Source: a candidate division FCPU426 bacterium
GTDB taxonomy: Bacteria; Oederibacteriota; Muellerivitia; Muellerivitales; Muellerivitaceae
Reading direction: 5' to 3'
DNA length: 64,000 bases
Assembly: GCA_963771075.1 (NCBI GenBank)
Contig: CAVYSE010000021.1
Coordinates: 1-64,000 of the forward strand
The position numbers and the translations under genes were made by a program. Under the pieces are notes generated by a model. That model saw only the letters and a program-made list of their open reading frames with translations. It searched no databases and was not told the DNA's origin. Below are positions 1 to 16,640 of this stretch, piece after piece (position 1 is the stretch's first letter; every line of letters begins with the position of its first letter).

Positions 1-6
1 TCCGCT

Positions 7-921
7 GCATGCATATCGGCAAAGTGCATGTAAAGTTACGGGTTTAGCAAGAGAACAAGCCGTCAAAGCCCGATGAAATAAGGAATCCGGGTCATGCCGT
101 CTGTTGAAGCGGTAAGTATATTCAGCCAAATAACGGCCGATGTACTTGGCGCTCACGCCGTGATGAGTTCCTTTGAGCCATGTCTTGGCGTTGGAAATGA
201 ACTTGTGAACCCAGGGCAACCAACGGTCAAAGGATTGCCCCTTTCCCGCCATTTTCTCGTATTCCACTTCTACGTTTTCCAGATGATTCAAACGAGAACT
301 GGCATCCCTGCGAATTCGAGACCCTTTTTGGACGGCCTCATTTACAAATTCTTTCGCCTTCTGTTGGGTTTCGTAAGCCACTTTTACCTTGGCAAAGCCC
401 GCTTTTGGTTTTTTGCGACCCTTTTCGTCTGTCCATTCCTTGCTTTCCACCCCAATAAGCACTTGGACCTCGTTGTAGGTCTTTCGTTTCCCAAACTGCG
501 CACCGTCCAACTCGATTAAACCCTTGAGTTGATAGCATTTTTCCCTTTGCGCTAGGGCTTCTCGTAACTTTTGCAACATCCCCCAAACGGTTTCGTATCC
601 CCTTCCCAAATGCCGTCTCAGTTCTTGGGCTGAAACGCCTCTTTTGCCTTGCATAACAAAGCCAATAGCCCTGATCCAGATAAGCAAAGGAAGCTTGGAA
701 TGCTCGAAAATAGTTCCTGCCCGTACTCGGATTTGTTTAAAACAAACGTCGCATTGCCTTATTTCGGACCGACGTTTGTGCTGCCAATAGTTTTCATTCT
801 CGCAATAGGGACAAACAAATTTTTTTCCACCAAAACGACACTTCCACACCCAATCGCGAGCCTTCTCTTCCGTATTGATCCCCTTGAAGATCTCAATGCT
901 TTTCATCCGCCGATAGGTCAT
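7..921 (-). pseudogene. IS1595-family transposase, frameshifted near the N-terminus
   Basis: Manual translation: ATG at 921 after a GAGGAGG RBS gives MTYRRMKSIEIF..., then a frameshift in the A/T run near 820, a zinc ribbon FVCPYC...QCDVC, the DDE motif GLIELDGAQFG and C-terminal YTYRFNRR. It is missing from the ORF track because the frame runs off the window edge. Confidence 0.8.
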
Positions 922-993
922 AAATTTCCTCCTCAGCGGAGAGTATACGCTTGTATTCCATTATTTCAACATGCACTTTGCCGATATGCATGC
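7..993 (-). mobile_element. IS1595-family insertion sequence (~987 bp)
   Basis: Perfect 25-bp terminal inverted repeats GCATGCATATCGGCAAAGTGCATGT (7-31) and ACATGCACTTTGCCGATATGCATGC (969-993) enclose an IS1595-type transposase on the minus strand. Flanks tccgct / gctccgcg are compatible with a partly visible target duplication. Confidence 0.85.
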
Positions 994-2624
994 GCTCCGC
1001 GACCGACGAAAATAAGGGTTTTTTGCTAAACGGGAAAATCCTGCTTTCCCTGGCCGATCTGGAAGACCTGGCCCTGGTAGAAAAGGCCCTACGGGAAGTC
1101 TTGGACGACTACCTGACCGAACCCCAGGTGAAGGGCCTGGTTGTCCATATCCAAGAAGGCGGAGCCGCGGAGGGCTACCGACCCACAGTTAAGTCTAAAG
1201 TTAAACCTGAGCCAGGCTCCCCGGCAAAGGGCCCTTCTGCCCCCACACCCCATCCATCCGGCGCTATGCCCAAAGATCAACCCGGTCCCCATCATGATAA
1301 GAAGCCTCATTCCACCCATTCCCAACCCCAAGGCAATGGATCGATAAATACGGCAATCAAGAAAGATCCGGGTGAGTCTCACGCCGATACCCCAATGGTA
1401 TCGGCACAGACAGGTCATGGTCGTCGCCTTGAGAGCGACGACCAGTCGTTATTTTGGGGCACAATGGCCGGCATCCCCTGGATCAAGGCCATTCGAGCCA
1501 AAATCAATGCAGGGCAAGACCTCGCCCTCTGGGAAAAGCTGTTCTTGGTGGCGGCCTTCTTTGGTCGGATCTTGCATTGGCTATGGCATACGACCTGGCC
1601 CATTGCCAAGAGGTTCTTTCAGCTGGGTTGGGCGAAACTTGAAAAGGGCTTTGAACAGCCATCCTTAGGCTCCTGGGGGAGGTGGTAGGCAAGCCCGCCA
1701 AGAAAATAGCCAAGGGCGTGGTAGGTATCGCCTTGGTGGTGGGCCTGGCCTATGGGCTTTATCTATTCTTCTTCCACCCGGCGGGTTTGAGGGGCTTGTT
1801 GAGCCGGACCGCCTCTGGGGTGATCCATTGGGTAGGGTCTTGGGTAAACCCTTGGGAAAGCGATAGTAAGGCTGTTCCTCAACCACTACCCACGACAATT
1901 CCAACCCCGGGAACTTCAAATCCAACACAAAGACACGAAGCCCCAAAGGAGGCACAGAATATCGCGTTTCGGTGAAACCCAAAACCCAGCTGGGCTTCCG
2001 CCACTCATATTTCGCCTAAAGCTTCCCTGACCCTCTGTTCCGAGGTCTCAAACCGAGGAACAAGGTTTGGGCGCGCCAATTCCGGAAAAGGGAATTGGTG
2101 CTCTGGCTGCGAACCGTCGACTGCCGAACTAAATCTGGCCCCATCGGCTACCGATAATAGACCTTCGACTAACCCTTCGGGCCAGTCCCAGTTGGACCTT
2201 CTCAACCAAATCAACGCGGAATCAAAAACCGCCCAGGCTTTCGCCCAGGTCTTTTACGCGGCGGATTACAACGACCTGTTGGGCAGGAGAACCAAACTCA
2301 ACAAATATTTGGGCCCAGGCTATTCCGGCGCTTTTTTCAAAGCCTTTCCAATCGGCTTTGAAGATCAAGGAAATCGGCGAACATAAGCTGGTCGAAAGTT
2401 TCAAACCCTCGGGCGACGCGAAACTATTGAGGTCGGACGATCAATCGGAGGAATTCCAAGTGGAGGGCACCTTGGTCACCCGGAGTGAGATGGATATTTC
2501 GGACCCCGTCACCACCCAAAAACCCTCGGGGCTCGTGATTGACCTCTCCCGTGAGCCGGAGTCGAAGGGGCTTGTGACCGGCGTGAGGGAAATGGTTTTT
2601 CCGGGAAAAAAGGGTAACCCGTAA
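994..2624 (+). pseudogene. Fragmented membrane-anchored protein gene(s), 5' end cut by the IS1595 element; function unknown
   Basis: Consecutive overlapping + strand ORFs (951-1688, 1682-1975, 2192-2386, 2358-2624) with transmembrane and Pro-rich segments, consistent with frameshift decay. Confidence 0.4.
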
Positions 2625-2700
2625 AACAATTCTTTAAGCACTTCATGAAAAGATCCAATTACAAAGAAATTATTTTAATACTCTTGCCTACTCATGGCGG

Positions 2701-2753
2701 CGGCCCCGAAAACGACCCCTTCAACCCTCCCCGCAGGGCGGTACGGCTGGCGG
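2701..2753 (+). repeat. 53-bp direct repeat, left copy (partner 14661-14713)
   Basis: cggccccgaaaacgaccccttcaaccctccccgcagggcggtacggctggcgg; 48/53 identical to the right copy by manual alignment. Confidence 0.85.
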
Positions 2754-2791
2754 CGCCGTGAGGGAAGCGGTTGTTTTAGCGGCCAAACTAG

Positions 2792-2817
2792 GGTGTCCAC
2801 TAAATCGGGGAAGTCCA
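2792..2817. mobile_element. Isolated IS3-family-like terminal inverted repeat remnant
   Basis: GGTGTCCACTAAATCGGGGAAGTCCA resembles IS3-family ends (TG...CA); no transposase is adjacent. Confidence 0.45.
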
Positions 2818-2852
2818 CATGACCAAAGGGGGTAAAATAGTCGTTATCGGGT

Positions 2853-2880
2853 TGTCCACGACGGGGACCGATCGCGGACA
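2853..2880 (+). repeat. Array site R1
   Basis: TGTCCACGACG GGGACC GATCGCGGACA. Confidence 0.9.
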
Positions 2881-2907
2881 GGTAAAAGACGTATGAAGGT
2901 GTAATGA

Positions 2908-3282
2908 ATGGAACATTTTTTTCTGTGGTTGAAGAAATTTTTCACAATTGACAGGTCGGCGATTTTTGTGGTTTTGGTAGTTATATTTTATTTCTTGATC
3001 CATATGAGCGCGGAACTTAATGATTGGTATACAAAGTGCGCGGCTCGATTACCGGTACCAACAACATTTTGTTTTTCAATTGGCGAACAGCTTCAATTTT
3101 TTAATCATTCGTGGGTGGTTTTACTAACTCTTCCCTTGTATGTCGGGGTGGTCTTTTTTTGCGAGAAGGTGATAAAAAAACTAGTTTGGTTGAAATAAGG
3201 ATTGATTATTATTTTTTTGGGCATTGTTTTAGGGCTAATAACCATTGCCATGTATATCCCCATGTTTCAGGTGGTGGAATAA
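2908..3282 (+). pseudogene. Small membrane protein with PilC/GspF-like motifs and an internal TAA at 3196-3198
   Basis: ORF 2908-3198 continues in frame after the stop as GLIIIFLGIVLGLITIAMYIPMFQVVE*, resembling the PilC/GspF C-terminus. It has an LPVPT motif, and its final stop overlaps site R2. Confidence 0.55.
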
Positions 3283-3309
3283 GTCCATGATGGGGACCCG
3301 CATTGGACA
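3282..3309 (+). repeat. Array site R2
   Basis: AGTCCATGATG GGGACC CGCATTGGACA. Confidence 0.9.
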
Positions 3310-3378
3310 GGATAATTTTAATGATCGAGCCGTTTCTAAAGAGTTGAAATCCAGGTTGGATATAGAAAGAATTCTTTC

Positions 3379-4152
3379 ATGACCACCCGAATCCTTAAAC
3401 CCTGGCCCGTTCTGGCGGACGTCATCGCTTCCATTGATCTTCATGACACCGCAACCACTGGCGAAGGTCCCGCCTATTCGGTTTTGCCCTCGCCCCAATT
3501 TGTCATGGGGTTTCAATTGCAAGGCCGTTTGAAAACGCTTCGTCCCGGGAGCGAAACAACCCTTACTCCCAGCGGCGTTACCGGACTCCAGGGGCAAAGC
3601 CGTCTTTATCAAGGGGTCGGCAAGACCCGGTCCATCCTGGTGCGTTTCAAACCCTGGGGGCCTTCCTGCTTTTTACCGGGGCCCATGGGCGAGCTGATGA
3701 ACGAAAGTGTGGACCTGCGCCAGTTGTGGGACCCGCAAGAAGTCAGCGACCTCGAAGATAAGCTTTATCACTCTACGCCCGGACCGGCGGTGGTCCTCTT
3801 GCAAACTTTTCTGGTCAAGCGCCGCCGGTTTCAAACCATCGATCCTCTGGCGCTCAACGCCGCCCAACGGTTCATCCTCAAAGCGGGTAATGTTTTGATC
3901 GGACGCATGGCCGGGGAACTGGCCACCACCGAACGTTCCCTCGAAAGACGGTTCCAGCAATGGATCGGCACCAGCCCCAAACGGTTCGCGGCCCTGCTGC
4001 GTTTCCAAAAAAGCATCCAAATGCTTCAGGAGGGGAAGGATGGGACAGAGGTGGCCTATGAGTGCGGCTATTTCGACCAGGCCCATTTCATCCAGGAATT
4101 CAAGAATTTTACCGGGGTTTCACCCCAAAAATATAAAACCGGGCTGCTTTAA
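3379..4152 (+). CDS. AraC-family transcriptional regulator
   Basis: C-terminal double HTH (SLERRFQQWIGTSPK...VAYECGYFDQAHFIQEFKNFTGVSP). Confidence 0.92.
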   Translation: MTTRILKPWPVLADVIASIDLHDTATTGEGPAYSVLPSPQFVMGFQLQGRLKTLRPGSETTLTPSGVTGLQGQSRLYQGVGKTRSILVRFKPWGPSCFLPGPMGELMNESVDLRQLWDPQEVSDLEDKLYHSTPGPAVVLLQTFLVKRRRFQTIDPLALNAAQRFILKAGNVLIGRMAGELATTERSLERRFQQWIGTSPKRFAALLRFQKSIQMLQEGKDGTEVAYECGYFDQAHFIQEFKNFTGVSPQKYKTGLL

Positions 4153-4237
4153 GATTGTCGGATTTTTCCAATAGGTTTTTTCCACACCTACCTAAAATTA
4201 TTCAAGTTGGTTTATTACATCAAACAGGAGGACGCAA

Positions 4238-4900
4238 ATGAAAACGGAACAAAGGGCAGAGGTTTTGATCAATGTGCACAAGGGACTACGCCGGGGGCTG
4301 TTGGGCCTGGCGCTCAAGCTGGGCGCCTTGGACTGGCAGGATCAGGAAGAGGTCAAGGCGGCCGGGGAAGATTTCGCCACCATGCTTCACTTTTTAATGG
4401 AACACGCGGCCAACGAGGACCAGATCCAATTTCCGATGCTGGAAAATAAGGTGCCCGGGGCCGCCTGTCGGGAAATGGAAGAACACCATCGTCTGGAAGC
4501 GCAGATCGACGATTTGGAAAAACAATGGGCGCGGCTGGCTGTGGAAACGGATAAATCCAAGCCGGGTTACGCCTTCTATCTGGCCTATAACCGGTTCCTT
4601 TCGGATTATCTGGCCCACATGGACCACGAAGAGACGGATCTGACCGACGCCCTTTATCAAAATTTCACCGACGCTGAAATCGAGGCGGAGTTCAAAAAAA
4701 TCATCGCCCGCACCCAGCCCGCGGACATGGGCATGATGCTGGGCTATATGATCCCGGGGATGAATCCGGCGGAGAGGGCCCAGTTCCTTTCCAAGCTTCA
4801 AAAGACCGCGCCGGCGCCGGTTTTTGAGAAAGTGAAAGGATTGGCCCAAAAGGTTCTGTCTTCCGGCGATTGGGAAAAGCTATCAGCTCGGTTAGGATAA
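4238..4900 (+). CDS. Hemerythrin/HHE cation-binding domain protein
   Basis: VHKGLRR, HAANED, EEHH and HMDHEE motifs; AGGAGG RBS. Confidence 0.85.
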   Translation: MKTEQRAEVLINVHKGLRRGLLGLALKLGALDWQDQEEVKAAGEDFATMLHFLMEHAANEDQIQFPMLENKVPGAACREMEEHHRLEAQIDDLEKQWARLAVETDKSKPGYAFYLAYNRFLSDYLAHMDHEETDLTDALYQNFTDAEIEAEFKKIIARTQPADMGMMLGYMIPGMNPAERAQFLSKLQKTAPAPVFEKVKGLAQKVLSSGDWEKLSARLG

Positions 4901-4928
4901 CCGTGATGGGGAAAACCGCTACTAATGT

Positions 4929-4956
4929 TGTCCACGACGGGGACCTGTAGTGGACA
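4929..4956 (+). repeat. Array site R3
   Basis: TGTCCACGACG GGGACC TGTAGTGGACA, flanked by GT...AC. Confidence 0.92.
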
Positions 4957-5002
4957 ACTAAAAACCCTATGAGGGATAGTCTAATGATAAGAAACCCAAA
5001 CC

Positions 5003-5031
5003 TTGACGACTCCCTATTTATTGTATATACT
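5003..5031 (+). promoter_or_regulatory. Sigma70-type promoter of brnTA, probably leaderless
   Basis: TTGACG-17 bp-TATACT, with the ATG 6 nt after the -10 box. Confidence 0.65.
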
Positions 5032-5037
5032 AATATT

Positions 5038-5319
5038 ATGAGATTTGATTGGAACTCCGCTAAGGACGAAGCTAACTTTAAGAAACACGGCGTTTCATTC
5101 AAAACAGCTATCTCGGCCTTTGATGATCCATATGCCCTGGTAGCCGCTGACCCTAAGCATTCCACCACTGAATCCAGGGAATGGTTGATTGGAGAAGCTG
5201 ACGGTGGAAAGGTTCTGGTGGTAGTTTTCACCAAACGCTTACAAGGCCAGATCTGTCGCATCATCAGCGCAAGGCCGGCAAGCCGTCGGGAAAGGAACCG
5301 TTATGAAGAGCTCAAATGA
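5038..5319 (+). CDS. brnT: BrnT-family toxin
   Basis: MRFDWNSAKDEANFKKHGVSF...RIISARPA signature. Confidence 0.92.
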   Translation: MRFDWNSAKDEANFKKHGVSFKTAISAFDDPYALVAADPKHSTTESREWLIGEADGGKVLVVVFTKRLQGQICRIISARPASRRERNRYEELK

Positions 5320-5593
5320 ATTTCCGTTTCACAAGGCAAGAAGGTTGACTCCCGGAGAAGTGGAGAAGAACCGTCAGGCGATCGAACATCACACTGGCAA
5401 ACCGCGCCGTCCGCGTGGCCGACCCGCTAAAGAGCCTCATGAGCTTTATTTGCCGGTTTCCATTCGCCTTAATCCGAAAACCTTAGAATGGGCCAAGAGA
5501 ATTGGCCGACAAAGAGGCATTGGATACCAAACCGTCATCAACGAAGCCTTATTGAGTGTTGCCGGAGAAAAGAAATTTTCCCACGCGCATTAA
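5303..5593 (+). CDS. brnA: BrnA-family antitoxin
   Basis: RGRP...VSIRL...GYQTVIN motif; overlaps brnT. Confidence 0.88.
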   Translation: MKSSNEFPFHKARRLTPGEVEKNRQAIEHHTGKPRRPRGRPAKEPHELYLPVSIRLNPKTLEWAKRIGRQRGIGYQTVINEALLSVAGEKKFSHAH

Positions 5594-5607
5594 GGCTTTC
5601 CGGAGCT

Positions 5608-5635
5608 TGTCCACGACGGGGACCCATCGTGGACA
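5608..5635 (+). repeat. Array site R4
   Basis: TGTCCACGACG GGGACC CATCGTGGACA. Confidence 0.92.
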
Positions 5636-5655
5636 GATGAAAAGAAAGGAATCGA

Positions 5656-5992
5656 ATGAATATAAAAGGATTTAAAGATTCTATTTGTAGACTTCCTCCA
5701 AAATATTCTTTTTGTGGGATTGTTGGCCATAATTTCAATTGTTTATGTCAAAAATGCCCTTGAATTAGATCACCATGGAAGAATCGGGAATGGAATTTTT
5801 TGGTTGATATGGGGATCGGTTTTTTATTTATTGGTTTGTATTAAGCCTTTAATGAAATGGATGTACCAGATGCAAATGGATTGGATTAAGAAAAAGAAAA
5901 CTTTTGAAGACTTTCAAAAAGATGGCCAAAAAGCCTTTTACACCGCCGTCTATTTTGCTCTCATTAATTTTATTTTAGCTTTTTTCTATTAA
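5656..5992 (+). CDS. Hypothetical membrane protein, probably frameshifted in the T-run near 5709-5713
   Basis: An ATG at 5656 after an AAGGA RBS is out of frame with the hydrophobic ORF 5714-5992. Confidence 0.55.
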
Positions 5993-6021
5993 AGGAAATT
6001 TTGCAATTACCCATTTAAAGT

Positions 6022-6049
6022 TGTTCACGACGGGGATCCGGATTGGACA
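6022..6049 (+). repeat. Array site R5
   Basis: TGTTCACGACG GGGATC CGGATTGGACA. Confidence 0.88.
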
Positions 6050-6104
6050 AAGATTTTGTAAGACTTAGCCGCTTTTTTTAAGGTTTAATTTATTCGGAGG
6101 CTTT

Positions 6105-7016
6105 TTGAACTCTTTTCTTATCATTCTTACCTTTTTATCAGGACTTTCCGTGCAGGCCTATTTTTTTACCCAGGGATTACCCAAACCATCCGAAAGGCGA
6201 CGCTGGCTACTCTTAGTTTTTTCTATTTCCCTATTATTGGTCCTTCTTCCAATGGACATCCCCGATCTTATAGGGGGAAAACCATGGGTCGAAATCGCTT
6301 ATAGCTCATTCATCGTTTTGACTTTGGTTTTTTGCCTTGTGACCACCGGCATTTTATTCATGGACAAAACCGTACCTTCAATTGGCCAAGCAAATATACT
6401 TTCTTTTACGATGATTTTTTGGCTTGTTTGTTTTAAACACTTTGACGGTTTTGGGTTAGGGACATCATTTTTAATTTCTTTCGGCAGTGTCGCCACTCTT
6501 GGGACACTGCTCGTTATTCTTTTAAAGGCGCAATTGAATTTTTTAGGAAAACTTTTCTTTTACAGTTGGTTTTTGTTTATCAATGTTTATCTTTGTAGTT
6601 TCCAGGTTCTTTTAGGAGATTTTAGGCTAGTGGATATGGATAGGGGATGGGAATTCCTGGGTCATTACCACTATCTATCCGCGTTCTTTTCAGGAATGGC
6701 GATCCTGTTCTTTACTGTCTATGGATTTTATTTTTCCCTGGCCTTGGGATCCCTCGTCAAATTGGCCTTTAAGGGGAGCCGACAAGCCAAAGCGAAGGGT
6801 GGTAAAAAATGGGAAGATGCGGAAATGATGATAAGCCATCTTTCGGACTATCAAATTGGCATAAAAGAAGCGCTTCTCATCATACTTTTTCAAGGCGGTC
6901 TTTATTTGTTAAATGAATGGCATCCTTTTTTCTCAGTGCCGTTGCTGGTTAATTTTTCGATCGTCGTCTTGCCATTTGTTTTAAGATGGATTTTCCAATC
7001 CATTTCCAAACTATAA
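6105..7016 (+). CDS. Hypothetical multi-pass membrane protein
   Basis: 303-aa hydrophobic AT-rich ORF; GGAGG RBS before a TTG start. Confidence 0.8.
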   Translation: MNSFLIILTFLSGLSVQAYFFTQGLPKPSERRRWLLLVFSISLLLVLLPMDIPDLIGGKPWVEIAYSSFIVLTLVFCLVTTGILFMDKTVPSIGQANILSFTMIFWLVCFKHFDGFGLGTSFLISFGSVATLGTLLVILLKAQLNFLGKLFFYSWFLFINVYLCSFQVLLGDFRLVDMDRGWEFLGHYHYLSAFFSGMAILFFTVYGFYFSLALGSLVKLAFKGSRQAKAKGGKKWEDAEMMISHLSDYQIGIKEALLIILFQGGLYLLNEWHPFFSVPLLVNFSIVVLPFVLRWIFQSISKL

Positions 7017-7019
7017 GGT

Positions 7020-7047
7020 TGTCCATGACGGGGACCCGTATTGGACG
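7020..7047 (+). repeat. Array site R6
   Basis: TGTCCATGACG GGGACC CGTATTGGACG. Confidence 0.88.
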
Positions 7048-7140
7048 ATCCTTTTTAACCCAAAGAGTTAAAATGGGTTCCGAAGGTCTGCCAGAGGGGG
7101 AGGTGGACAAACCATATTCGAAGTGAAAAAAGGAGAATCT

Positions 7141-7647
7141 ATGCTGGCAAAAAAAATCGCCTTGGGATTCGGAATCGCGTTGGTTTTTCCATTGCTTATT
7201 CATTTCGGGGTCAGCTCATTTGTTCATGAACCGAAATGGAAAGATTACCACAAGAATGATTATCAAGATTTGAGCGCAATGCCTCAAGCGGAACGATCCG
7301 CGGCCATTGAGGAAAGAAACAAAAAGCAAAAAGAAAATCAGGACGCGTTCGATAAAGCGAAATCTAGTTTTGACCAAATATTGTTTTGGGTCGCGCTCCC
7401 GATCGGGTTGATCGCCATAGTTGTTGGCGCTTTTCTCGCAGCTCAAGGCATCGGGACCGGCCTCGTTTTCGGAGGAATTTTTACGCTCATTGACGGCTAT
7501 GGGAATAACTGGAATGACATAGATGATAGGCTCAAATTTTTGTCATTACTCGTCACTTTCATCATTCTCATTTTCGTTGGCTATAAGAAAATTGAAAACA
7601 AAGCAAAAAAAGACGCAGCTCCCCAAAACCCGCCCAACATTAGCTGA
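7141..7647 (+). CDS. Hypothetical membrane protein
   Basis: AAGGAG RBS, ATG at 7141, about four hydrophobic segments. Confidence 0.8.
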   Translation: MLAKKIALGFGIALVFPLLIHFGVSSFVHEPKWKDYHKNDYQDLSAMPQAERSAAIEERNKKQKENQDAFDKAKSSFDQILFWVALPIGLIAIVVGAFLAAQGIGTGLVFGGIFTLIDGYGNNWNDIDDRLKFLSLLVTFIILIFVGYKKIENKAKKDAAPQNPPNIS

Positions 7648-7662
7648 ATCGTAAACGAACCT

Positions 7663-9639
7663 GCAGAGTAGAGCGCTGGCGCGTATGCCTTAGAGTACGG
7701 TGGCGAATCCAACCCTTTCGGATTGGGCCTCAGTCCGGCTCTCATCACCACGTTTCCAGCGCCCCCTCATCAAACCGTACGTGACCTTTTCGATCATACG
7801 GCTTTCCGACAACCTTTCAACCGGCAGCATTCAAGGCAAAAGCTGGAATCCAGTTCAAACCAAGGCGTTTCACTTCCTCGATCGACCATGTTCGTCCTTC
7901 CCAGGCGTACTTATGCCTCCGAAACAAAGTCAGCCTTTCGAGTACGTAAAATTGAAGCTTGGAAAAGTATGGCTGGCTGTCCCCAATTCGGAAATAGTTG
8001 GCCCACCCCCTTAACACCGGGTTCAAAGCCTTCGCTACATCCTCCATTGGAGATAAGAGCCGCTCTCGGCCCGCCGTCATCTGCTTCACTTTCTCGGCGA
8101 TTTTCTTCATGGCCTTCCGGCTCGGCCAGCTCAGGCAACAGGTCTTACCCAATCCTACCACCGGCATACCTACTCGAAAGTGGAACCCAAGGAAGTCAAA
8201 CCCTTCCTTCCCAGGCCCCATTTCCACCAGCCGTGTCTTTTCGGGGTGCAGTTCAAGCCCTAGTCGTCCCATCAATTCCTTGATGACTTCCAGGCTCTTT
8301 TCCGCATGGGCTTGGCTTCCGCACAACACCACAAAATCGTCGGCGTAGCGCACCAGCCTACCCAGTTTCCTGTGCCTCTTATTCCAAACCTTGTCCAGCA
8401 AGTGAAGGTAAACATTGGATAACAGCGGTGAGATCACCCCGCCTTGCGGTGTCCCTCGGAGAGTCGGCGTAAGCCTTCCTTCCTCAAACACACCCGCCTT
8501 CAGCCACCCTCGGATCAGTTTCAAAACCTTCCGGTCACTGATCCTCTGGCGCACCAGCACCATCAGTTTGTCGTGGTCGATGGAATCGAAATACTTCCGA
8601 ATATCTCCATCCACCACCCATCTGTACCCGCCATTGATCCACTTCTTGATCTCCCGGTGGGCCTGCTGGGCTCCGCGTTTTGGCCGAAATCCAAACGAGC
8701 CTTCCAGAAAGTCCGCCTCAAAGATGGGTTCCACCACCTTCCGGCAAGCCGCTTGAACTACCCGATCCCGAATTACCGGGATTCCCAACGGTCTCTTGCT
8801 TCCATCAGGCTTGGGTATTTCCACTCGTCTCACAGGTTTAGGCAGATACTTCCCAGCTTTGAGTTCTTCCTGGATGCCCTTCAGGAATGGAATAATTCCC
8901 ACCTTCTCTTCGATCCATTCCAGCGTTTCCCCGTCCACTCCTCCTTGGCCTTTATTAGCCTTCACCTGTTTCCATGCCGCTGTCAGGACATCCCATCGGG
9001 TCATCCTGTCATGCAGTACATGAAATCTCCGGCTTGGGCTCCTCTTGGCCGCTCGGTATAGCGCCCTTTGAAGGGTTCGCGCCTTGTCTTCGGAGTTGTT
9101 GGCCCTTTGGGGCATGCTCCAGCGCCTCCCTTTTGAAGGTTGCTTGGTTGAAGCAGGGGTCCTTCCCTCCAGGTGGTTTTGTTGTCCACCCTTCACAGGT
9201 ATTGTGACCCCCTCCGACTTCCTCCCGCCCTTGCCCCTTTTCGGTTTTAGCCTTATAGCGGCAAGTCTTTTGGCGGGTAGGATCTCCCAGGTTGCTTGCA
9301 AAGCCTTTCCAGCATTCCGTTCCCCATACGCCGGAGGACTTGCCCCGCTTGCTCCAGATTCTTCAGCGGGATCGTGGCCTTCGCCGGTAGACACGCGGCT
9401 CGGCATCCTCTTGCACCTTTCGGTGTCCCATTCACGACGCGGCAGGATTCACTTGATGTTGCGGACTGCTAGATTGTTCCCTCACTGAATGAGGTTTATG
9501 ACCCCGTTTCGGGCAGAACCTCTCGGTCCTACGCCGGGGGCTGACTTCCAGGCTCTCTGGCGATTACCTGGTCAGGATTTGGGCTGGCCCTCTTCGGCCT
9601 ACTCCCTCACCTGCTGGCTCTACAAACCTTCGCTGGCAC
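7663..9639 (-). mobile_element. Group II intron (ribozyme plus RT/maturase)
   Basis: 5' end GTGCCAGCG at 9639; domain V GAAAGCCGTATGATCGAAAAGGTCACGTACGGTTTGATGAGGGG just after the RT stop; domain VI ending ...GCGCTCTACTCTGC near 7663 (3' end uncertain by 1-2 nt). Confidence 0.9.
7817..9115 (-). CDS. ltrA: Group II intron reverse transcriptase/maturase, no endonuclease domain
   Basis: NKGQGGVDG, RPLGIP, GTPQGGVISPLLSN, RYADDF and maturase RGWANYF motifs. Likely start MPQRANN at 9115. Confidence 0.95.
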   Translation of the reverse strand: MPQRANNSEDKARTLQRALYRAAKRSPSRRFHVLHDRMTRWDVLTAAWKQVKANKGQGGVDGETLEWIEEKVGIIPFLKGIQEELKAGKYLPKPVRRVEIPKPDGSKRPLGIPVIRDRVVQAACRKVVEPIFEADFLEGSFGFRPKRGAQQAHREIKKWINGGYRWVVDGDIRKYFDSIDHDKLMVLVRQRISDRKVLKLIRGWLKAGVFEEGRLTPTLRGTPQGGVISPLLSNVYLHLLDKVWNKRHRKLGRLVRYADDFVVLCGSQAHAEKSLEVIKELMGRLGLELHPEKTRLVEMGPGKEGFDFLGFHFRVGMPVVGLGKTCCLSWPSRKAMKKIAEKVKQMTAGRERLLSPMEDVAKALNPVLRGWANYFRIGDSQPYFSKLQFYVLERLTLFRRHKYAWEGRTWSIEEVKRLGLNWIPAFALNAAG

Positions 9640-9641
9640 GA

Positions 9642-9669
9642 TGTCTACGATGGGGACCCATCGTGGACA
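9642..9669 (+). repeat. Array site R7, next to the intron 5' end
   Basis: TGTCTACGATG GGGACC CATCGTGGACA. Confidence 0.9.
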
Positions 9670-9775
9670 GGTTTAACGACCTGTCATGGACGGTGTTTTT
9701 AACCGATTTGATGTATTAAACTTCATTGTGATATACACCATCCAGATTTAATATGGTGTATCAGGAGGTGAATCC

Positions 9776-9979
9776 ATGGCACGCACAAATATCGTCCTTG
9801 ACGACGAATTGATCCGGCAAGCGGTTCGATTGACGGGGGCAAAGTCCAAACGCGAGGCGGTCGATATCGCCTTGAGAAAGCTCATCAAACAGGCGGGGCT
9901 CTACCAAAAATTCCTCAAGCTTGAGGGGAAACTGCATTGGGAAGGCGACCTGAAGCAAATGAGAAAAAGCAGGGTATGA
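9776..9979 (+). CDS. vapB: VapB-type antitoxin
   Basis: MARTNIVLDDELI...SKREAVDIAL; translationally coupled to the PIN toxin. Confidence 0.88.
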   Translation: MARTNIVLDDELIRQAVRLTGAKSKREAVDIALRKLIKQAGLYQKFLKLEGKLHWEGDLKQMRKSRV

Positions 9980-10368
9980 TTGTCGTTGATTCATCGGTTT
10001 GGATTGATTATTTCAACCACCATCCTTCTCCTACCGCCGAGAAGTTGAAAACCTGTTTCGCCGCCGAAACCCCATTGGCTATTATTCCCATGGTTCTAAT
10101 GGAAGTATTATCCGGGTTTAAGTCCGACACGGATTTTAAAAAAGCTTTGGATTTCATGTTGGACTTGCCAATTATTCAAACCGGCCCCTCCGTTCACGTC
10201 AACGCAGCCCGGTTGTTCCGCCATCTTCGACAAAAGGGTATTACCATAAACGGTCATGGCGATTGTCTGATAGCCCAAGCTTGCATCGAAAACGGGGCTC
10301 ATCTTCTGGCGGTGGACAGTGACTTCGAACATATCGCACGCCATTGCTCTTTAAAACTAGCCCATTAA
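9976..10368 (+). CDS. vapC: VapC PIN-domain toxin
   Basis: MIVVDSSVWID...EVLSG...DCLIA...DSDF. Confidence 0.92.
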   Translation: MIVVDSSVWIDYFNHHPSPTAEKLKTCFAAETPLAIIPMVLMEVLSGFKSDTDFKKALDFMLDLPIIQTGPSVHVNAARLFRHLRQKGITINGHGDCLIAQACIENGAHLLAVDSDFEHIARHCSLKLAH

Positions 10369-10401
10369 TATTCAAGCCTGAAATTGAGACAAGGTTCAGG
10401 T

Positions 10402-10429
10402 TGTCCACGATGGGGACCCGGAATGGACA
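10402..10429 (+). repeat. Array site R8
   Basis: TGTCCACGATG GGGACC CGGAATGGACA. Confidence 0.92.
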
Positions 10430-10482
10430 AAGAAAAATGGATAATGGTTTGTCTGCCGAAGCCTTGGCGAAGGTAGTTGGCC

Positions 10483-11806
10483 TGATAACATGAAAAAGGC
10501 TGCAGAGCTCCAAGCGTAGAGCGTCTCCACTTAAGTGGGACGAGGCTCTAGGATAAACCCAGAGTCGAAAAGGCACTCACCTTTGCAGGTGGTGCAAAAC
10601 GCTTAGGAGGTGCAGCCGTGGGACAGTATATCGGAGTAGACCTACACCAGAAAACATCCTACGTCACGAGAGTGAATGAGAAAGGAAAGGTGCTGGAACA
10701 AGTCGATCTGAAGAACGACGCGGATACTTTAAAGGCTTATTTCAAGAAGCAACCCGTGAGTAGCCAGGTCGTAGTAGAAGCCACAGGTCATTGGTATCAC
10801 TTTTACGAACTCATCGAGGATCGATTCCCCAACCTGGTATTGGCCCACCCCCAAAAGGTCAAAGCCATAGCCTCGGCCAAGATCAAGACGGATAAAATTG
10901 ATTCGGGAATCCTGGCTCAACTTTTGCGGGTGGATCTGCTGCCACGAGCCTATGTGCCACCCCGAGAGATCCGCGACTTACGGGAAATCCTTAGGTACCG
11001 GGCTTCCCTGGTGCAATTGAGAACACAAGCCAAAAACCGGATGACTTCGGTCATGACCAAGGCGGGAATCGAACCCGTTACTAAAAACCGATTCGGAATA
11101 AAGAACTTCCGCGAACTTGCCACGGTAGGTACCCGGCCTTGCTACCGTTTGGAACTGGACGGATATATGGAAGTAATCCGGGAACTAGGCCAAGAGATCG
11201 CCAAATCAGAAGAGGTGATCAAGAAAATGGCAGCAGAAAGCCCGGAAGCCCAGCTGATGATGACCATGCCAGGCGTGGGTGCCTTTTCGGCTTTATTAAT
11301 TTTGAGCGAGATTGGGGATATTCGCCGGTTCCCGGACGCGGAACATCTATGTTCTTATGGTGGATTGGTCCCCAGTGTTCACGCATCAGGGGGAAAAAGC
11401 CACAACGGCCACATCACCAAACAGGGTTCTAAATGGATTCGCTGGATATTGGTTGAGAACTCGCTTCATGCCATTCGCAAAACCCGACGGTATGGGACCT
11501 TATACACGAGGGTGAAGAAGAAGCATGGGAATAACGCGGGACGAATAGCAGTAGCAAGGGCTATGCTGAAAAGCATCTTTCATATGTTACGAAAGAAGGA
11601 AGCTTTTGAGGACTGCCCGGCCAGCTCCGACGGGGTCTGACACAACCCGCAAGAGTTGAGGTCCTTGGCCTGATTGAGCGGCCGGGTCCAACGTTATCGT
11701 GCGGTGAAACAACCGCGAATAGGTGACTGACTTGTAGTCCTTTGAGACTCAGGTTGGACTTGGGGCCGTGATACTACGCTTTTGCCTGGACATTCTTTTT
11801 CATAGG
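10483..11806 (+). mobile_element. IS110-family element, IS1111-like
   Basis: Subterminal inverted repeats ATGAAAAAG (10490-10498) and CTTTTTCAT (11795-11803) flank the transposase, with ~160 bp of non-coding sequence on the right. Exact ends are inferred from IS1111 convention. Confidence 0.7.
10618..11640 (+). CDS. IS110-family transposase
   Basis: YIGVDLH, VEATG, KTDKIDS and GLVPSVHASG motifs. Confidence 0.95.
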   Translation: MGQYIGVDLHQKTSYVTRVNEKGKVLEQVDLKNDADTLKAYFKKQPVSSQVVVEATGHWYHFYELIEDRFPNLVLAHPQKVKAIASAKIKTDKIDSGILAQLLRVDLLPRAYVPPREIRDLREILRYRASLVQLRTQAKNRMTSVMTKAGIEPVTKNRFGIKNFRELATVGTRPCYRLELDGYMEVIRELGQEIAKSEEVIKKMAAESPEAQLMMTMPGVGAFSALLILSEIGDIRRFPDAEHLCSYGGLVPSVHASGGKSHNGHITKQGSKWIRWILVENSLHAIRKTRRYGTLYTRVKKKHGNNAGRIAVARAMLKSIFHMLRKKEAFEDCPASSDGV

Positions 11807-11858
11807 TGACCCCGATTTTTCGTTGGTGTTTGTTACTTTCATTTATGAGGGTGGTTAT

Positions 11859-12383
11859 ATGCTTGATTTAACAAAACTTAAAAACTATTTATGGCGCCCA
11901 TTTGAAATTGAGAGCAAGCGCCCGGTTAAAACAATCCAAGACGGAATCTCTAAAAAGGTAATCAAAGAGATGTCGTTTCAATGGTTGCCTGATGAGAAGC
12001 TGAGGGGAAAATCGACTAACGGTCATTTTGAGATTTCTTATAAACCTCTTTCCTCATACTTTATGAGAGGCGCGGGCTCTTTGACAATGCGGGGTGTTAT
12101 CGAAAGCGAGGGAACGGGCAGCCGCATTTATGGCCATTTGCCCGGTCCGCCCTTTGCGGTTTATTTACTTTTGGCCATATGGATTGGTTTTTGTATCATG
12201 CTTTTAAATCAATTTATCCGAGAGGCTTTAGCCCATAATTTTGTTGCGTCAGAACAACTTCCGCTTTGTATCGTCGGACTTATCTTTCCAGGCATGGCGG
12301 TTATCATTTTTTTCTTTGATAGGGAAGCCAACAAGGCTGGCGAGGGGAAAATATTGGATTTGCTGAAAGCGATCGTCAAATAA
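11859..12383 (+). CDS. Hypothetical membrane protein
   Basis: ORF with two C-terminal transmembrane segments; GAGG RBS. Confidence 0.75.
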   Translation: MLDLTKLKNYLWRPFEIESKRPVKTIQDGISKKVIKEMSFQWLPDEKLRGKSTNGHFEISYKPLSSYFMRGAGSLTMRGVIESEGTGSRIYGHLPGPPFAVYLLLAIWIGFCIMLLNQFIREALAHNFVASEQLPLCIVGLIFPGMAVIIFFFDREANKAGEGKILDLLKAIVK

Positions 12384-12427
12384 TGACACAAAGGGGTCGG
12401 CCATTAACCATTTCGGAACGAATTAAT

Positions 12428-12455
12428 TGTCCACGACGGGGACCCTTCGTGGACA
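12428..12455 (+). repeat. Array site R9
   Basis: TGTCCACGACG GGGACC CTTCGTGGACA. Confidence 0.92.
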
Positions 12456-12502
12456 AAGAAAAGCTGTAGATTGAGCCGGGAAATATTTGAGGTGAAATAT
12501 TC

Positions 12503-12985
12503 ATGAATTATGTACCTGTTTTTGATGTTGGCCATGTCGGGGTCACCTATTGGTTTATAAAGTTTTGGGTGTTCTTGGTCGTTCCTGTTTTTTTAGGAAT
12601 TTGGGGGTTGGTGGTGGGTAGAAAATCCACCGTTTCCAGGCCGGTAAAGATTCTGTATTTAATTTTCTGGGTTATTTCATTTCTTTTTTGCGCTTACTCT
12701 CCAACCAGCGATTTTTTAAATCTTCGCGAGGCATTGTTGACTGGTAAATGCAGTGTTGTGGCAGGCGCTGTGACTGATTTTGTTCCAATGCCTGGTGAAG
12801 GGCACAAAAATGAATCATTTAAAGTTCAAGGAACAGGTTTTTCCTATTCCGATTATTCACCCCAAGCAGGGTTTAACAATTCTTCTTCCCATGGTGGTCC
12901 GATTAAAGAAGGCCTTAAAGTTAGGATTTCTTATTTGACTGAAAATGGAGAAAATGAAATCGCTAAACTTGAAATCGTTAATTGA
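12503..12985 (+). CDS. Hypothetical membrane protein
   Basis: GAGGTG RBS; two N-terminal transmembrane segments, then a soluble beta-rich domain. Confidence 0.8.
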   Translation: MNYVPVFDVGHVGVTYWFIKFWVFLVVPVFLGIWGLVVGRKSTVSRPVKILYLIFWVISFLFCAYSPTSDFLNLREALLTGKCSVVAGAVTDFVPMPGEGHKNESFKVQGTGFSYSDYSPQAGFNNSSSHGGPIKEGLKVRISYLTENGENEIAKLEIVN

Positions 12986-13013
12986 ATAATTCAGTGGGGC
13001 GGTTCTGAACTGT

Positions 13014-13041
13014 TGTCCACGAAGGGGACCCGTATTGGACA
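13014..13041 (+). repeat. Array site R10
   Basis: TGTCCACGAAG GGGACC CGTATTGGACA. Confidence 0.92.
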
Positions 13042-13072
13042 ACCAAAAAATGGTTTATTTGGAAAATTTTAA

Positions 13073-13606
13073 ATGAGACCACCTGATATTATCGAAACGA
13101 CCCGACTTCGATTGAGGCCCCCTGAAATTGCCGATGCGGTGTCCATTTTTGAAAGTTACGCCCAGGATCCCGAAGTTGTGAAATTTTTAACCTGGCACCC
13201 TCACAAAAACGTCAAAGAAACCCAAACATTTCTTAAAGGTGTTTTGGATAGGGCTCAAAATGCCACCCGATTTCCCTATGTGATAACCCGATTAACAGAC
13301 GGCCAATTTCTCGGAATGTTCGAGTTGAGGTTGGATGGGCACATGGCTGACGCGGGGTACGTCCTTGCGAAAGCCCATTGGGGAAAAGGTTATATGACCG
13401 AAGCGGTAAAAGTCTTTGTGGAGTGGAGTCTCGCACAAGAGAGCATTTTCAGATTTTGGTCAATCTGCGACATCGAAAATCCAGCTTCTGCCAGGGTCAT
13501 GGAAAAAGCCGGAATGAAGCTTGAGGGAATTTTGCGTCGACGAATCATTCATCCAAATGCAAGTAAGGAACCCAGGGATGTATATTGTTATTCAGTAGTT
13601 AAATAG
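13073..13606 (+). CDS. GNAT N-acetyltransferase, RimJ/RimL type
   Basis: IETTRLRLRP, HWGKGYMTEA and ENPASARVMEKAGM motifs. Confidence 0.92.
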   Translation: MRPPDIIETTRLRLRPPEIADAVSIFESYAQDPEVVKFLTWHPHKNVKETQTFLKGVLDRAQNATRFPYVITRLTDGQFLGMFELRLDGHMADAGYVLAKAHWGKGYMTEAVKVFVEWSLAQESIFRFWSICDIENPASARVMEKAGMKLEGILRRRIIHPNASKEPRDVYCYSVVK

Positions 13607-13615
13607 AAAAAGCGT

Positions 13616-13643
13616 TGTCCACAACGGGGACCCGGATTGGACA
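13616..13643 (+). repeat. Array site R11
   Basis: TGTCCACAACG GGGACC CGGATTGGACA. Confidence 0.9.
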
Positions 13644-13707
13644 AGGGATAAATGGCTCAAGGCCTTAACACTAGGTTTGACTACATACTCGGGAGTTAAA
13701 TGCCAAC

Positions 13708-14364
13708 ATGGACAAAAAAGCAGTGGTTTTGTGGACTGGCGGAAAAGATTCTTCCTTGGCCTTCTATGAAGCCGTTTCAATGGGATATAAAGTGAACGCT
13801 CTTGTCACTTTCGCTCCCGAAAATGAAAGGTTCCTCGCCCATCCCCTGAAATTCATGAAGCGTCAAGCGAAGGCTATTCATCTCCCTCACCGGACGATCC
13901 ACATTCGTCCGCCCTTTAAGGAGGGTTACGAAAAGGCGATCCAAGGCTTGAGCCGAACGATCGGTACATTGGTTACCGGCGACATTTCGGAGGTGGACGG
14001 CCATCCAAACTGGATCAGGGAATGCAGCAAGAAAAGTGGCGTAGGTGTTCTTACGCCCCTTTGGAAACGTAACCGAGTTGAAATCCTCCGCAAACTTCTT
14101 TCCCTCGGATTCAGCGTTATCTTTTCCTGCGTGAAAAAACCTTGGCTTGCTAAGGAATGGGTCGGCCAGACGCTCGACGAGCGATGTTTGAACCGGTTGA
14201 TGGAAATACACAAAGAAACCGGGTTGGATGTTTGTGGGGAAAACGGGGAATACCATACCTTGGTTACGGACGGTCCTCTATTCAGGAAAGGCATTCAAAT
14301 CACCAGTCAATCGATTTGCACGGAAGGTAAGTTTATGTATATGCAAATCAAAAGAATGAAATAG
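13708..14364 (+). CDS. Diphthine-ammonia-ligase-like ATP pyrophosphatase (DUF71)
   Basis: WTGGKDS PP-loop and DVCGENGEYHTLV motif. Confidence 0.9.
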   Translation: MDKKAVVLWTGGKDSSLAFYEAVSMGYKVNALVTFAPENERFLAHPLKFMKRQAKAIHLPHRTIHIRPPFKEGYEKAIQGLSRTIGTLVTGDISEVDGHPNWIRECSKKSGVGVLTPLWKRNRVEILRKLLSLGFSVIFSCVKKPWLAKEWVGQTLDERCLNRLMEIHKETGLDVCGENGEYHTLVTDGPLFRKGIQITSQSICTEGKFMYMQIKRMK

Positions 14365-14389
14365 CTGCACATGGGCAAGCCCGTGGTAC

Positions 14390-14406
14390 TGTCCACGGCG
14401 GGGAGC
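14390..14406 (+). repeat. Terminal half-site R12 (left arm plus spacer only)
   Basis: TGTCCACGGCG GGGAGC with no TGGACA right arm; 25 bp after the last cassette stop. Confidence 0.65.
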
Positions 14407-14660
14407 ACCAAGCTCCCAGCTTGGTGCAGTGGTCGTGGTCAAGCAGAAATAAGACGGATAACCTAGCCTGGAAATCACTCAAACGGGTTAAAAGGAGGCT
14501 GGATGCCGATCACCAACAGCAGTTCCGGGACCCGTAAACGGGGTCAGTCATCAATTATTAAAAATATCTAAATCGCCAGATATTCCTTATACCGCTCGGA
14601 ATTATTTAAAAGGCAGTAAATCCTTGATAGCCACTATTCATTTTAAGGCCCCTACGAGAC

Positions 14661-14713
14661 CGGCTCCGAAAACGACACCTTCAACCCGCCCCGCAGGGTG
14701 GTGCGGCTGGCGG
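14661..14713 (+). repeat. 53-bp direct repeat, right copy
   Basis: 48/53 identical to 2701-2753. Confidence 0.85.
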
Positions 14714-14852
14714 GGGGGCAATCCGTAATAAGCCATGACGGTGAACCGATATCCTTTAAAACCTGGGTACCACCCCTTATCCCAATACAAAGGGCCCGGC
14801 CCCTTTGTTATTAGACAACCGTATGTCAACTTATTAGTCAACCGAAGGAGAT

Positions 14853-15137
14853 GGTAGTGGGTCAGTTTGAATAATTCCCCACTTCCCCCATGCCTCTATT
14901 GAGAAAAATGATAGGGGGCATGGGGACGTCCCCATTTTTATTTCGTATGTTTCCAAATGAAGAAATGGGGGTGAAAAAGGGGGGCAGGGGGGTATTAGCC
15001 TTTAACTAAAAAGCTAACTCCCCCTTAATTCCCCTCTTTCATGCTGTTCCTCATATAAATTTCAGTTAATGAGAACAGTATAGTGCTTTAGCACAGAGGG
15101 GGAAAAAGAGGGTCCACCATCAAACTGATCTACTACC
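14853..15137. mobile_element. MITE (285 bp)
   Basis: Terminal inverted repeats GGTAGTGGGTCAGTTTGA / TCAAACTGATCTACTACC (16/18) and an 8-bp target duplication AAGGAGAT at 14845-14852 and 15138-15145; no ORF inside. Confidence 0.8.
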
Positions 15138-15193
15138 AAGGAGATCATGAGCCCCACGGCTCATGGCCATGGGCTGGACAAGGGGCCAACCCT

Positions 15194-16249
15194 TTACCGG
15201 TCGGACCTTTTCAACGCCAAGCGGAGGGATGTGGTATAGGGCGGCCGGCAGATGCCCGTTTCCATGACGATCCCCGTGATGAGTTTTCCGGGGGTGACGT
15301 CAAAAGCGGGGTTGTAAACGGGATATTCTTCCTTCGCGATGGGATAACCCTGGGGATGGGTCACTTCCCGGGAGCCCCGCTGTTCAATGACGATTTCCTC
15401 GCCGGTTTTTTTGGTCAAATCCAGCGTGGTCGTTGGCGCCGATATGAAAAAAGGGATCCCGTGCGCCTTGGCCAATACCGCCAGCGAATAGGTGCCGATC
15501 TTGTTCGCCGTGTCCCCGTTCGCCACGATCCGGTCCGCCCCGACGATCACCGCGTCGACCTTCCCCTGTTTCATGACGAAAGCGGACATGTTGTCCGTGA
15601 TTAAATGGAAGGGGACCTTGGCATGGGCGAGCTCGAAGGCCGTCAAGCGGGCGCCCTGCAAATAGGGCCGCGTCTCATCCACCCACACGTGCACTTTCTT
15701 GTTCCGCCGATAGGCCTCCAGGATTCCCGCCAGGGCCGTTCCCTGCCCCCCGGTCGCCAAAGCCCCCGTGTTGCAATGGGTCATGATTTGGGCGCGCCCC
15801 CTTAGGGCGTCCGCCCCAAAGCGGCCCAGCTTTTGGCACAGTATTTCATCTTCCCGGTGGATGGCGAGGGCCTCGCGCTCGATGGCCTTTTTCTGGAAGC
15901 CGACCGGCTTCCCCCCGTTTTCCATGAGAAGTTCGCGCATCCGGTCCAAGGCCCAAAAAAGGTTGACGGCCGTGGGGCGGGTTTTCCTCAGGCGGGCGAT
16001 GCCCTTTTCCACCTGGTTCACGAACACTTGCGCGGAATTCGTCTTGGCGTTTTTCGCGCCCACCGCGACCCCATAGGCCGCGGTGACCCCGATGGCCGGC
16101 GCGCCCCGGACCGTCATGTCCTCGATGGCCTTCGCGGTTTTCTCAACCGTGTCGCACTTGACCCAGACTTCTTTGAAAGGAAGCAACCGCTGTTCTAGCA
16201 GGTAGAGAATTCCATTTTTCCACCGGATGGGCTTCAGGGCTTCGGTCAT
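15194..16249 (-). CDS. mtnA: S-methyl-5-thioribose-1-phosphate isomerase
   Basis: VRGAPAIG, TRPTAVNL, THCNTGALAT, ETRPYLQGARLT and NKIGTY motifs. Confidence 0.95.
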   Translation of the reverse strand: MTEALKPIRWKNGILYLLEQRLLPFKEVWVKCDTVEKTAKAIEDMTVRGAPAIGVTAAYGVAVGAKNAKTNSAQVFVNQVEKGIARLRKTRPTAVNLFWALDRMRELLMENGGKPVGFQKKAIEREALAIHREDEILCQKLGRFGADALRGRAQIMTHCNTGALATGGQGTALAGILEAYRRNKKVHVWVDETRPYLQGARLTAFELAHAKVPFHLITDNMSAFVMKQGKVDAVIVGADRIVANGDTANKIGTYSLAVLAKAHGIPFFISAPTTTLDLTKKTGEEIVIEQRGSREVTHPQGYPIAKEEYPVYNPAFDVTPGKLITGIVMETGICRPPYTTSLRLALKRSDR

Positions 16250-16300
16250 ATTCGCTCCTATTGGATATAAAAAGTCGTAACTGCTCAGGTCAGGCAAGTC

Positions 16301-16601: not shown

Positions 16602-16640
16602 TTCAAACCGAGACACTACCAAATGTTTTTTTGCTGTCCC

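Follow-up and report, generated by a model that had tools for sequence, protein, structure and literature searches.

The window analysed here, a 64,000-nucleotide stretch from a candidate division FCPU426 bacterium (assembly GCA_963771075.1, contig CAVYSE010000021.1, positions 1 to 64,000 of the forward strand), carries an array of small gene modules separated by copies of a 28-bp palindromic site. We are highly confident that this array belongs to a real, mobile cassette system that is not an integron. Judged from sequence, the enzyme of this system is likely to be a short serine recombinase of 277 aa, whose gene ends next to such a site. With moderate confidence, we interpret the whole as a second, independently evolved integron-like capture system, founded on a phage-type serine integrase that was domesticated through loss of its directionality module. 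That such a domesticated integrase shuffles single-gene cassettes among about 100 identical 28-bp sites appears to us similarly, that is moderately, probable. In the following, G000 is the genome of the window, other G numbers are relatives, C numbers are contigs and L numbers are retrieved stretches.

Co-oriented 28-bp sites in the window and throughout the genome

A position weight matrix (PWM), iterated from the sites, was used to scan the 4.39-Mb genome at a cut-off of 13 bits. The 11 copies listed in an initial annotation of the window were recovered at their claimed starts (2853..2880, 3282..3309, 4929..4956, 5608..5635, 6022..6049, 7020..7047, 9642..9669, 10402..10429, 12428..12455, 13014..13041 and 13616..13643), every one on the + strand and with 35-48 bits, and the scan likewise found no copy elsewhere in the window. 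The refined consensus, TGTCCACGAYGGG-GA-CCCRTCGTGGACA, can be read equally as 11-6-11 or as 13-2-13 with a central GA. The sites had been placed about 0-45 bp downstream of stop codons; measured gaps were -1, 28, 14, 29, 3, 33, 44, 28, 9 and 25 bp, and about 14 bp at site 9642 after removal of the intron 7662-9641, as claimed. Several modules are AT-rich, as had also been noted, with module GC of 0.31-0.53 versus 0.532 for the genome. What was described as a half copy at 14390 does have its left arm, but is a site split by a 23-bp hairpin: left arm and GA are followed by the hairpin (14405-14427), which occurs a single time in the genome, and by a decayed right arm (14429-14441). Known attC sites span about 57-141 bp and end in RYYYAAC...GTTRRRY boxes. 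None of the 11 sites has such a pair within 100 bp, in line with the initial view that they are not attC sites, and isolated single R-boxes are present at 3 of the 11.

The array had been taken as local. This proved wrong, as the site is found genome-wide in 105 copies above 13 bits, compared to 0 and 2 matches in two block-shuffled genomes. Grouping at a distance of 8 kb assigns the copies to 28 places, of which 16 are arrays and 12 are singles. A scatter in both orientations, as for a repetitive extragenic palindromic (REP) repeat or a terminator, was named at the outset as the pattern that would contradict a cassette array; instead, the sites are clustered, and 68 of 71 pairs of neighbouring sites within 5 kb are co-oriented. 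According to a crude caller of open reading frames (ORFs), 87 of 99 sites are preceded by a same-direction ORF at a median gap of 29 bp, and a same-direction ORF comes next downstream of 74 of 98. Genome-wide, modules have a median length of 0.8 kb and a GC content of 0.49 versus 0.53. Among 81 ORFs carried by the other arrays, about 20 matched toxin-antitoxin-type families and 37 were unmatched at E<=1e-4. A promoter and terminator scan gave no excess over shuffles (15 vs 12.7 and 25 vs 19.2), and no leader promoter was shown.

Allowing up to 3 mismatches, the site was present in the single genome of the sister family (1/1) and in 25 of the 30 family genomes besides G000, and none of 67 genomes from elsewhere in the phylum had it; a reversed control pattern gave 0 everywhere. 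An exact-pattern scan of species genomes returned 51 stretches, all metagenome-assembled and one of them titled Candidatus Firestonebacteria, and viral contigs had 0 matches to the site pattern. No sites were seen beside mtnA, which lies just past the window array, in stretches from five relatives, two of them short on one side. This indicates that the window array is not a fixed feature of its locus. Altogether, these data support the proposed integron-like layout with a different kind of recombination site, and extend it to the genome and the family.

Modules exchange neighbours at breakpoints inside the site

Modules recur elsewhere beside other neighbours, with breakpoints inside the site. 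A gene order that is fixed regardless of the sites, named at the outset as another pattern that would contradict a cassette array, was not seen. The AraC/hemerythrin module (3283-4957) is 96% identical in G053, which belongs to another genus, where its neighbours are different. The match ends inside both sites: at 3282..3309 the right arm and the downstream flank are the same in both genomes and the left arm is not, while at 4929..4956 the left arm and the upstream flank are the same and the right arm is not. The BrnTA module has a second copy in the C3 array of G000 (87%, site to site) and relatives in 7 other genomes, with 0, 1 or 2 recognisable flanking sites. The GNAT module has a 74% identical copy directly after a site in G054, and a 115-aa cassette is first after the enzyme gene in G051 and second in G000:C28. 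One contig joins 5635 to 9693 with a 30-letter side; this could reflect a rearranged allele or a match to the site alone, and the contig was not counted.

To locate the crossover, 309 distinct sites with flanks, 99 of them from G000, were compared. After dropping 49 (82 to 33) and 8 (30 to 22) intron-junction pairs, 33 pairs had only the downstream flank in common and 22 only the upstream flank; these pairs are non-independent, several including the same enzyme-end site. Mismatches in the left (positions 1-11) versus right part (positions 17-28) of the site numbered 41 versus 33 in the downstream-sharing pairs and 15 versus 46 in the upstream-sharing pairs, and thus were more frequent towards the flank that differs in both sets. 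The tightest pairs have a mismatch at position 11 (downstream flank common) and at 16-17 (upstream flank common), which brackets the crossover to positions 12-15, a placement that would fit a 13-2-13 site with a GA core. Hybrid and half sites gave a mixed signal and did not sharpen the bracket. Arm positions 10 and 19 showed no covariation (Fisher p=0.45). Such free assortment argues against selection for a hairpin and is expected if arms shuffle on double-stranded DNA.

A short serine recombinase is linked to the sites

The G000 genome has one match to PF00239 and four to PF07508. These represent one full recombinase gene (C8:80002-80835, 277 aa) and three 5'-truncated copies, and all four have their 3' end 14 bp before a site, facing the cassettes. 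The 277-aa protein consists of the catalytic domain PF00239, with the active-site serine, and the recombinase domain PF07508, with no zinc ribbon and no coiled coil. It belongs to a short clade of 19 protein clusters (275-283 aa), none with PF13408, in which identity is at least 68% and beyond which it drops to at most 61%; the motifs Y16-V-R-V-S20 and D89-R-L-Y-R93 are invariant in this clade. In a midpoint-rooted tree of 46 rows, comprising 26 short sequences, some of them duplicates, and 20 hand-picked long ones, the short clade forms one branch (support 100/99) nested within tRNA-targeting large serine integrases of about 520 aa. Identity to such integrases is 50-60%. The ratio dN/dS was 0.04-0.16 in the 14 of 21 whole-gene pairs that had unsaturated dS, and by this measure the short clade is under purifying selection. 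The best fold matches of an AlphaFold model of the short recombinase were serine integrase-att complexes.

Furthermore, all 16 short-clade 3' ends examined, from 8 genomes of 5 genera and 2 metagenome contigs, adjoin a site or part of one in the same orientation. Full sites are present at 13 of these ends (four in G000, three in G070, two in G053 and one each in G067, G051, G072 and L142); of the others, the G054 site is split by an intron, G065 has a half site and L141 is cut by the contig end. By comparison, none of 9 full-length relatives within this order, examined with flanks of about 1.5 kb, had a site there, nor did any of 78 other metagenome loci, which are weak controls as they come from unrelated organisms. 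Plasmids carried only distant recombinases, with 26-32% identity among the 15 matches listed. The genes upstream of the enzyme gene are ArdC/RadC-like island genes in three genomes (G000, G067 and G054), while G051 has unknown genes of plasmid-like character there and G053 has housekeeping genes. On at least five occasions, the same enzyme end was joined to a different upstream cassette.

Proposed mechanism

We propose that the window array is one of 16 chromosomal arrays of a cassette system based on a serine recombinase. Each site would comprise two inverted 13-bp arms around an asymmetric GA that sets its orientation, and the recombinase of about 277 aa would derive from tRNA-targeting large serine integrases by loss of the zinc ribbon and the coiled coil, with the catalytic domain and the recombinase domain (RD/DBD1) retained. 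PMC11722253 describes characterised integrases in which DNA-binding domain 1 (DBD1) contacts DNA near the cleavage site, while the zinc ribbon (DBD2) and the coiled coil tell attP from attB, and an LI integrase without its coiled coil is reported to be promiscuous for site pairs (PMC5499577). For an enzyme that ends after the first DNA-binding domain, short, symmetric and interchangeable sites are therefore to be expected, and such sites are seen here. The recombinase is predicted to bind them as double-stranded DNA and, with directionality control lost, could recombine any two of them. Two sites in direct orientation would recombine to release the module or modules between them as a circle that keeps a single hybrid site, and re-insertion of circles at any site would yield co-oriented rows. 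The enzyme gene lies 3' of the array to which it belongs and faces that array, and its product may act in trans on enzyme-less arrays such as that of the window, while toxin-antitoxin modules would stabilise the rows.

A number of observations weigh against this model. The enzyme was matched as a protein in just 7 of the 26 site-bearing family genomes (19 without), G065 being an eighth genome with a DNA remnant of the gene, and searches failed to find it in the site-rich G066 (98% complete), in G044 and in the three further genomes of this genus. Only one of the four G000 copies is full length, and the window array has no adjoining recombinase. Subclades are about 0.3 pN apart in the RD region, with the bulk site consensus unchanged, and the AlphaFold model is mediocre (pLDDT 67). 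As reported for LI, the integrase without coiled coil is weak between molecules (PMC5499577), and its DBD1 has little sequence specificity (PMC11722253). As for the crossover, the 12-15 bracket depends on two informative pairs, the left/right contrast in the downstream-sharing set is weak, and core positions 14-15 are no more conserved than 12, 13 or 17, so that serine versus 6-bp-spacer geometry is only modestly resolved. The arm pairs 4/25, 6/23, 7/22 and 8/21 show some compensated changes. Finally, no circle was seen in data that consisted of assembled contigs only.

Alternative explanations

It is rather unlikely that the cassette system is real but run by another enzyme, with the short recombinase a passenger, or an island resolvase or integrase that uses the site as att. 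This would account for genomes, near-complete ones included, that have sites and in most of which the enzyme was not found, for its frequent position beside ArdC/RadC-like genes (in G067, sites flank the whole block of enzyme and ArdC genes) and for the often atypical right arm of the enzyme-proximal site. However, no other candidate adjoins the sites, the nearest tyrosine recombinase being at least 26 kb and the nearest Y1 transposase 660 bp away, and a mere passenger does not fit the at least five separate joinings of the enzyme end to different upstream cassettes. Moreover, an island that uses the site as att implies an enzyme that recognises the site, which is most of the explanation favoured here. 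We assign a clearly lower probability to the idea that the sites are dif-like in an 11-6-11 arrangement and that the family's single Xer-type tyrosine recombinase moves them as the 'dif modules' of Acinetobacter. The length of 28 bp does fit the dif format as given in PMC6449649, and the single Xer-like orthologue (G000:C6:114198) is confined to the order that has the sites and present in nearly all of its genomes, which would explain enzyme-less arrays. Against this, cassette sites are direct, whereas the pdif sites of PMC6449649 are inverted. In addition, the 5 family genomes that lack sites have the Xer gene as well, an upstream-flank-sharing pair differs at spacer positions 16-17, and an unrelated palindrome with a TATAA-N6-TTATA core was seen by eye next to the Xer gene in most of 30 loci. 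The Xer/dif reading was set aside after this palindrome was found.

About as improbable is a REP-like repeat or RNA hairpin whose neighbours change by 28-bp homology together with insertion sequence (IS) and intron traffic, with no dedicated recombinase. About 100 palindromic copies per genome just after stop codons, 20 matches to Y1 transposases in the genome, and the presence of introns, an IS110-like element and a 35-bp hairpin that target the site speak for it. In known systems of REP and REP-associated tyrosine transposases, the repeats flank the Y1 transposase gene and occur in inverted pairs. Here, 68/71 neighbouring pairs are co-oriented with a conserved asymmetric core, 0 of the 20 Y1 matches lie within 600 bp of a site, positions 10/19 do not covary, and several window copies fold weakly as DNA (-2.8 to -3.6 kcal/mol); furthermore, the neighbours are accessory genes, and the link to the recombinase 3' end would be left unexplained. 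The least probable alternative, which we consider very remote, is an atypical integron or cluster of attC sites lacking integron-integrase (CALIN) with very short attC-like hairpins that a divergent IntI recombines as single strands. A group II intron inserted at the site edge, as for attC-targeting introns, is compatible with it. The same holds for layout and cargo, which resemble CALINs as described in PMC4889954. By contrast, no R-box pair brackets the sites, which are near-identical in sequence rather than conserved in structure, and none of the 31 family genomes had a match to the integron integrase model TIGR02249 that reached the cut-off (best 84.5 of 265 bits); none of 14 control genomes passed either, so that this search had no positive control.

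Further candidates for the enzyme were considered and rejected. None of the eight tyrosine recombinases of the genome lies within 26 kb of a site; those other than Xer, namely a three-gene RIT-like block and four tRNA-linked integrases, are at least 26 kb from sites or on siteless contigs. Y1 transposases are not adjacent to sites, and the ParB-like gene upstream of the window array has weak ParB-N similarity only, with most of its copies lacking a following site.

At the Xer locus (G000:C6:114165-115235; L005:6167-7236), the adjacent palindrome reads as 11-6-11 with outer arms that covary, and a second copy of this palindrome with a different spacer occurs at G000:C12:14578. The Xer-adjacent palindrome is probably the dif site of this Xer. 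Just one Xer-like gene is seen in the family and in its sister family; elsewhere in the phylum, most genomes have two matches that are more distant.

Comparison with known systems

Integrons and CALINs, as described in PMC4889954, share with the present arrays co-oriented cassettes of 1-2 genes that each end in a site, many toxin-antitoxin and unknown genes, and many arrays without enzyme. They differ in that no IntI was found here and the site is a fixed 28-bp sequence, whereas attC of integrons is recognised by structure; the candidate enzyme here is a serine recombinase, encoded at the 3' end of an array and facing it, and no single attI-like entry point or cassette promoter (Pc) was demonstrated. 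SCC and SCCmec elements also represent a serine recombinase system with tandem cassettes bounded by repeated sites, from which Ccr excises cassettes singly or combined, including those that do not encode it (PMC11470126). According to the same source, SCC cassettes measure 17-48 kb and occupy one locus that has about four att sites, compared to modules with a median of 0.8 kb and about 100 sites at 28 places here. A further difference to Ccr is that the enzyme here has neither zinc ribbon nor coiled coil. Ccr enzymes are full-length.

The large serine integrases of LI, SPbeta, Bxb1 and phiC31 resemble the system in their catalytic and recombinase domains and in an asymmetric central dinucleotide of the site (PMC5499577, PMC11722253). 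In contrast to them, the enzyme here stops after the recombinase domain, and its sites are short, symmetric and all alike rather than attP, attB, attL and attR. The pdif modules of Acinetobacter, moved by XerC/XerD, likewise combine 28-bp sites, small accessory modules, many toxin-antitoxin genes and changing context (PMC6449649), but the sites here are direct rather than inverted, have near-symmetric arms without a dif-type core, and the host Xer has another site. PMC6002521 describes a full-length enzyme. A literature search over titles and the openings of abstracts, covering few subscription papers, found no such system described.

If the interpretation holds, cassette capture evolved more than once, through serine recombinase parts, and such arrays escape surveys based on attC. 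The enzyme would also be a minimal serine recombinase from nature that works in both directions, on a site shorter than loxP with its 34 bp; the system would bear on whether a serine integrase works with its first DNA-binding domain alone, and could give a compact recombination tool. With a fixed-sequence site and a single enzyme of 277 aa, the system is easy to test and a simple model of cassette origin. The arrays moreover hold many unknown accessory genes from an uncultured lineage.

Content of the window array

All modules of the window array are on the + strand. Module 1 is a membrane ORF (2908..3282) with an in-frame stop at 3196-3198 and is a pseudogene. Module 2 (3379..4900) encodes an AraC regulator (3379-4152) and a hemerythrin-domain protein (4238-4900), module 3 (4969..5593) a BrnT/BrnA toxin-antitoxin pair, and module 4 (5714..5992), with the lowest GC of 0.31, a small membrane ORF. 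Modules 5 (6105..7016) and 6 (7123..7647) encode membrane proteins of 303 aa, with no Pfam match, and 174 aa, respectively. A group II intron on the - strand (7662..9641, reverse transcriptase 7817-9406) is flush with the edge of site 7 and precedes module 7 (9776..10368), a VapB/VapC (PIN) pair. Module 8 houses an IS110-family element (about 10478-11802, +, transposase 10618-11640) and, as cargo, a membrane protein with no Pfam match (11823..12383). It is followed by module 9, a 160-aa protein with no Pfam match (12503..12985), module 10, a GNAT acetyltransferase (13073..13606), and module 11, a Diphthami_syn_2 family ATPase (13708..14364), after which the array ends with the split site (14390..14441, +). 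An Rfam scan of window positions 1-20000 gave matches to the intron and chance matches only.

Insertions at sites and neighbouring elements

The sites are targeted by several other elements. About 10 near-identical copies of the window's group II intron are inserted in the genome at either site edge, and a second group II intron type lies inside the site after the left arm (G000:C3:168386-169987; L064, L066, L122 and L132), including the enzyme-proximal site of G054. An IS110-like element is flush with the left edge of the site at G000:C5:85584-86948 and C9:1839-3203. The IS110-family element of the window has 8 copies in the genome, and in one public contig position 10477 is followed directly by 11803, as would be the case in an allele free of this IS. 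At least 10 sites are interrupted by a 35-bp hairpin that has terminal inverted repeats of 10 bp and whose position and orientation are the same in each (G000:C26:73645, 134343, 135924 and 136851; C5:98233, 102509 and 104244; C11:133963; C20:37114; C3:148692); no larger autonomous element with such ends was seen. Introns and IS1111 elements that target attC may be a parallel to these insertions. At G000:C26:138321-143721, an inverted duplication of three sites together with the modules they bound surrounds an intron fragment; it is either a rearrangement or an assembly artefact.

In the subclade of G000, G067, G070 and G072, the stop codon of the recombinase gene is separated from the site by a 13-bp palindrome (L088:4837-4849, corresponding to G000:C8:80836-80848). 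A similar palindrome comes after some of the sites that have no detected enzyme gene nearby. The 5' ends of two tRNA-Glu genes (G000:C1:9971 and C18:217143) match the reversed site core in 11 of 12 letters. An origin of the site from tRNA-Glu may be taken as a lead only, the test being post hoc and the closest long relatives of the enzyme overlapping tRNA-Asn/Gln.

Upstream of the window array, an element with perfect 25-bp terminal inverted repeats (7..993) truncates a ParB-N-like gene, a broken, membrane-anchored copy of which extends over 996..2624 (+). This multi-copy family has 700-800 aa, a membrane segment and weak ParB-N similarity, and copies were found in the window (996-2852) and on the G000 contigs C3, C13, C9, C5, C1, C11, C18, C27 and C28. 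Less broken copies on C3, C13 and C9 also precede a site, on C9 displaced by an IS110-like element. A conserved 53-bp 3' element of this family (2701-2753), together with a leader of about 100 bp, forms a unit (2701..2852, +) that recurs before sites on C3, C13 and C9 and twice on C5. Past the array, a second 3' element (14661..14713, +) is 91% identical to 2701-2753 and is followed by a repeat with many partial genome copies (14853-15136). Two public contigs join 2764 to 14853, like an array-free copy on C11.

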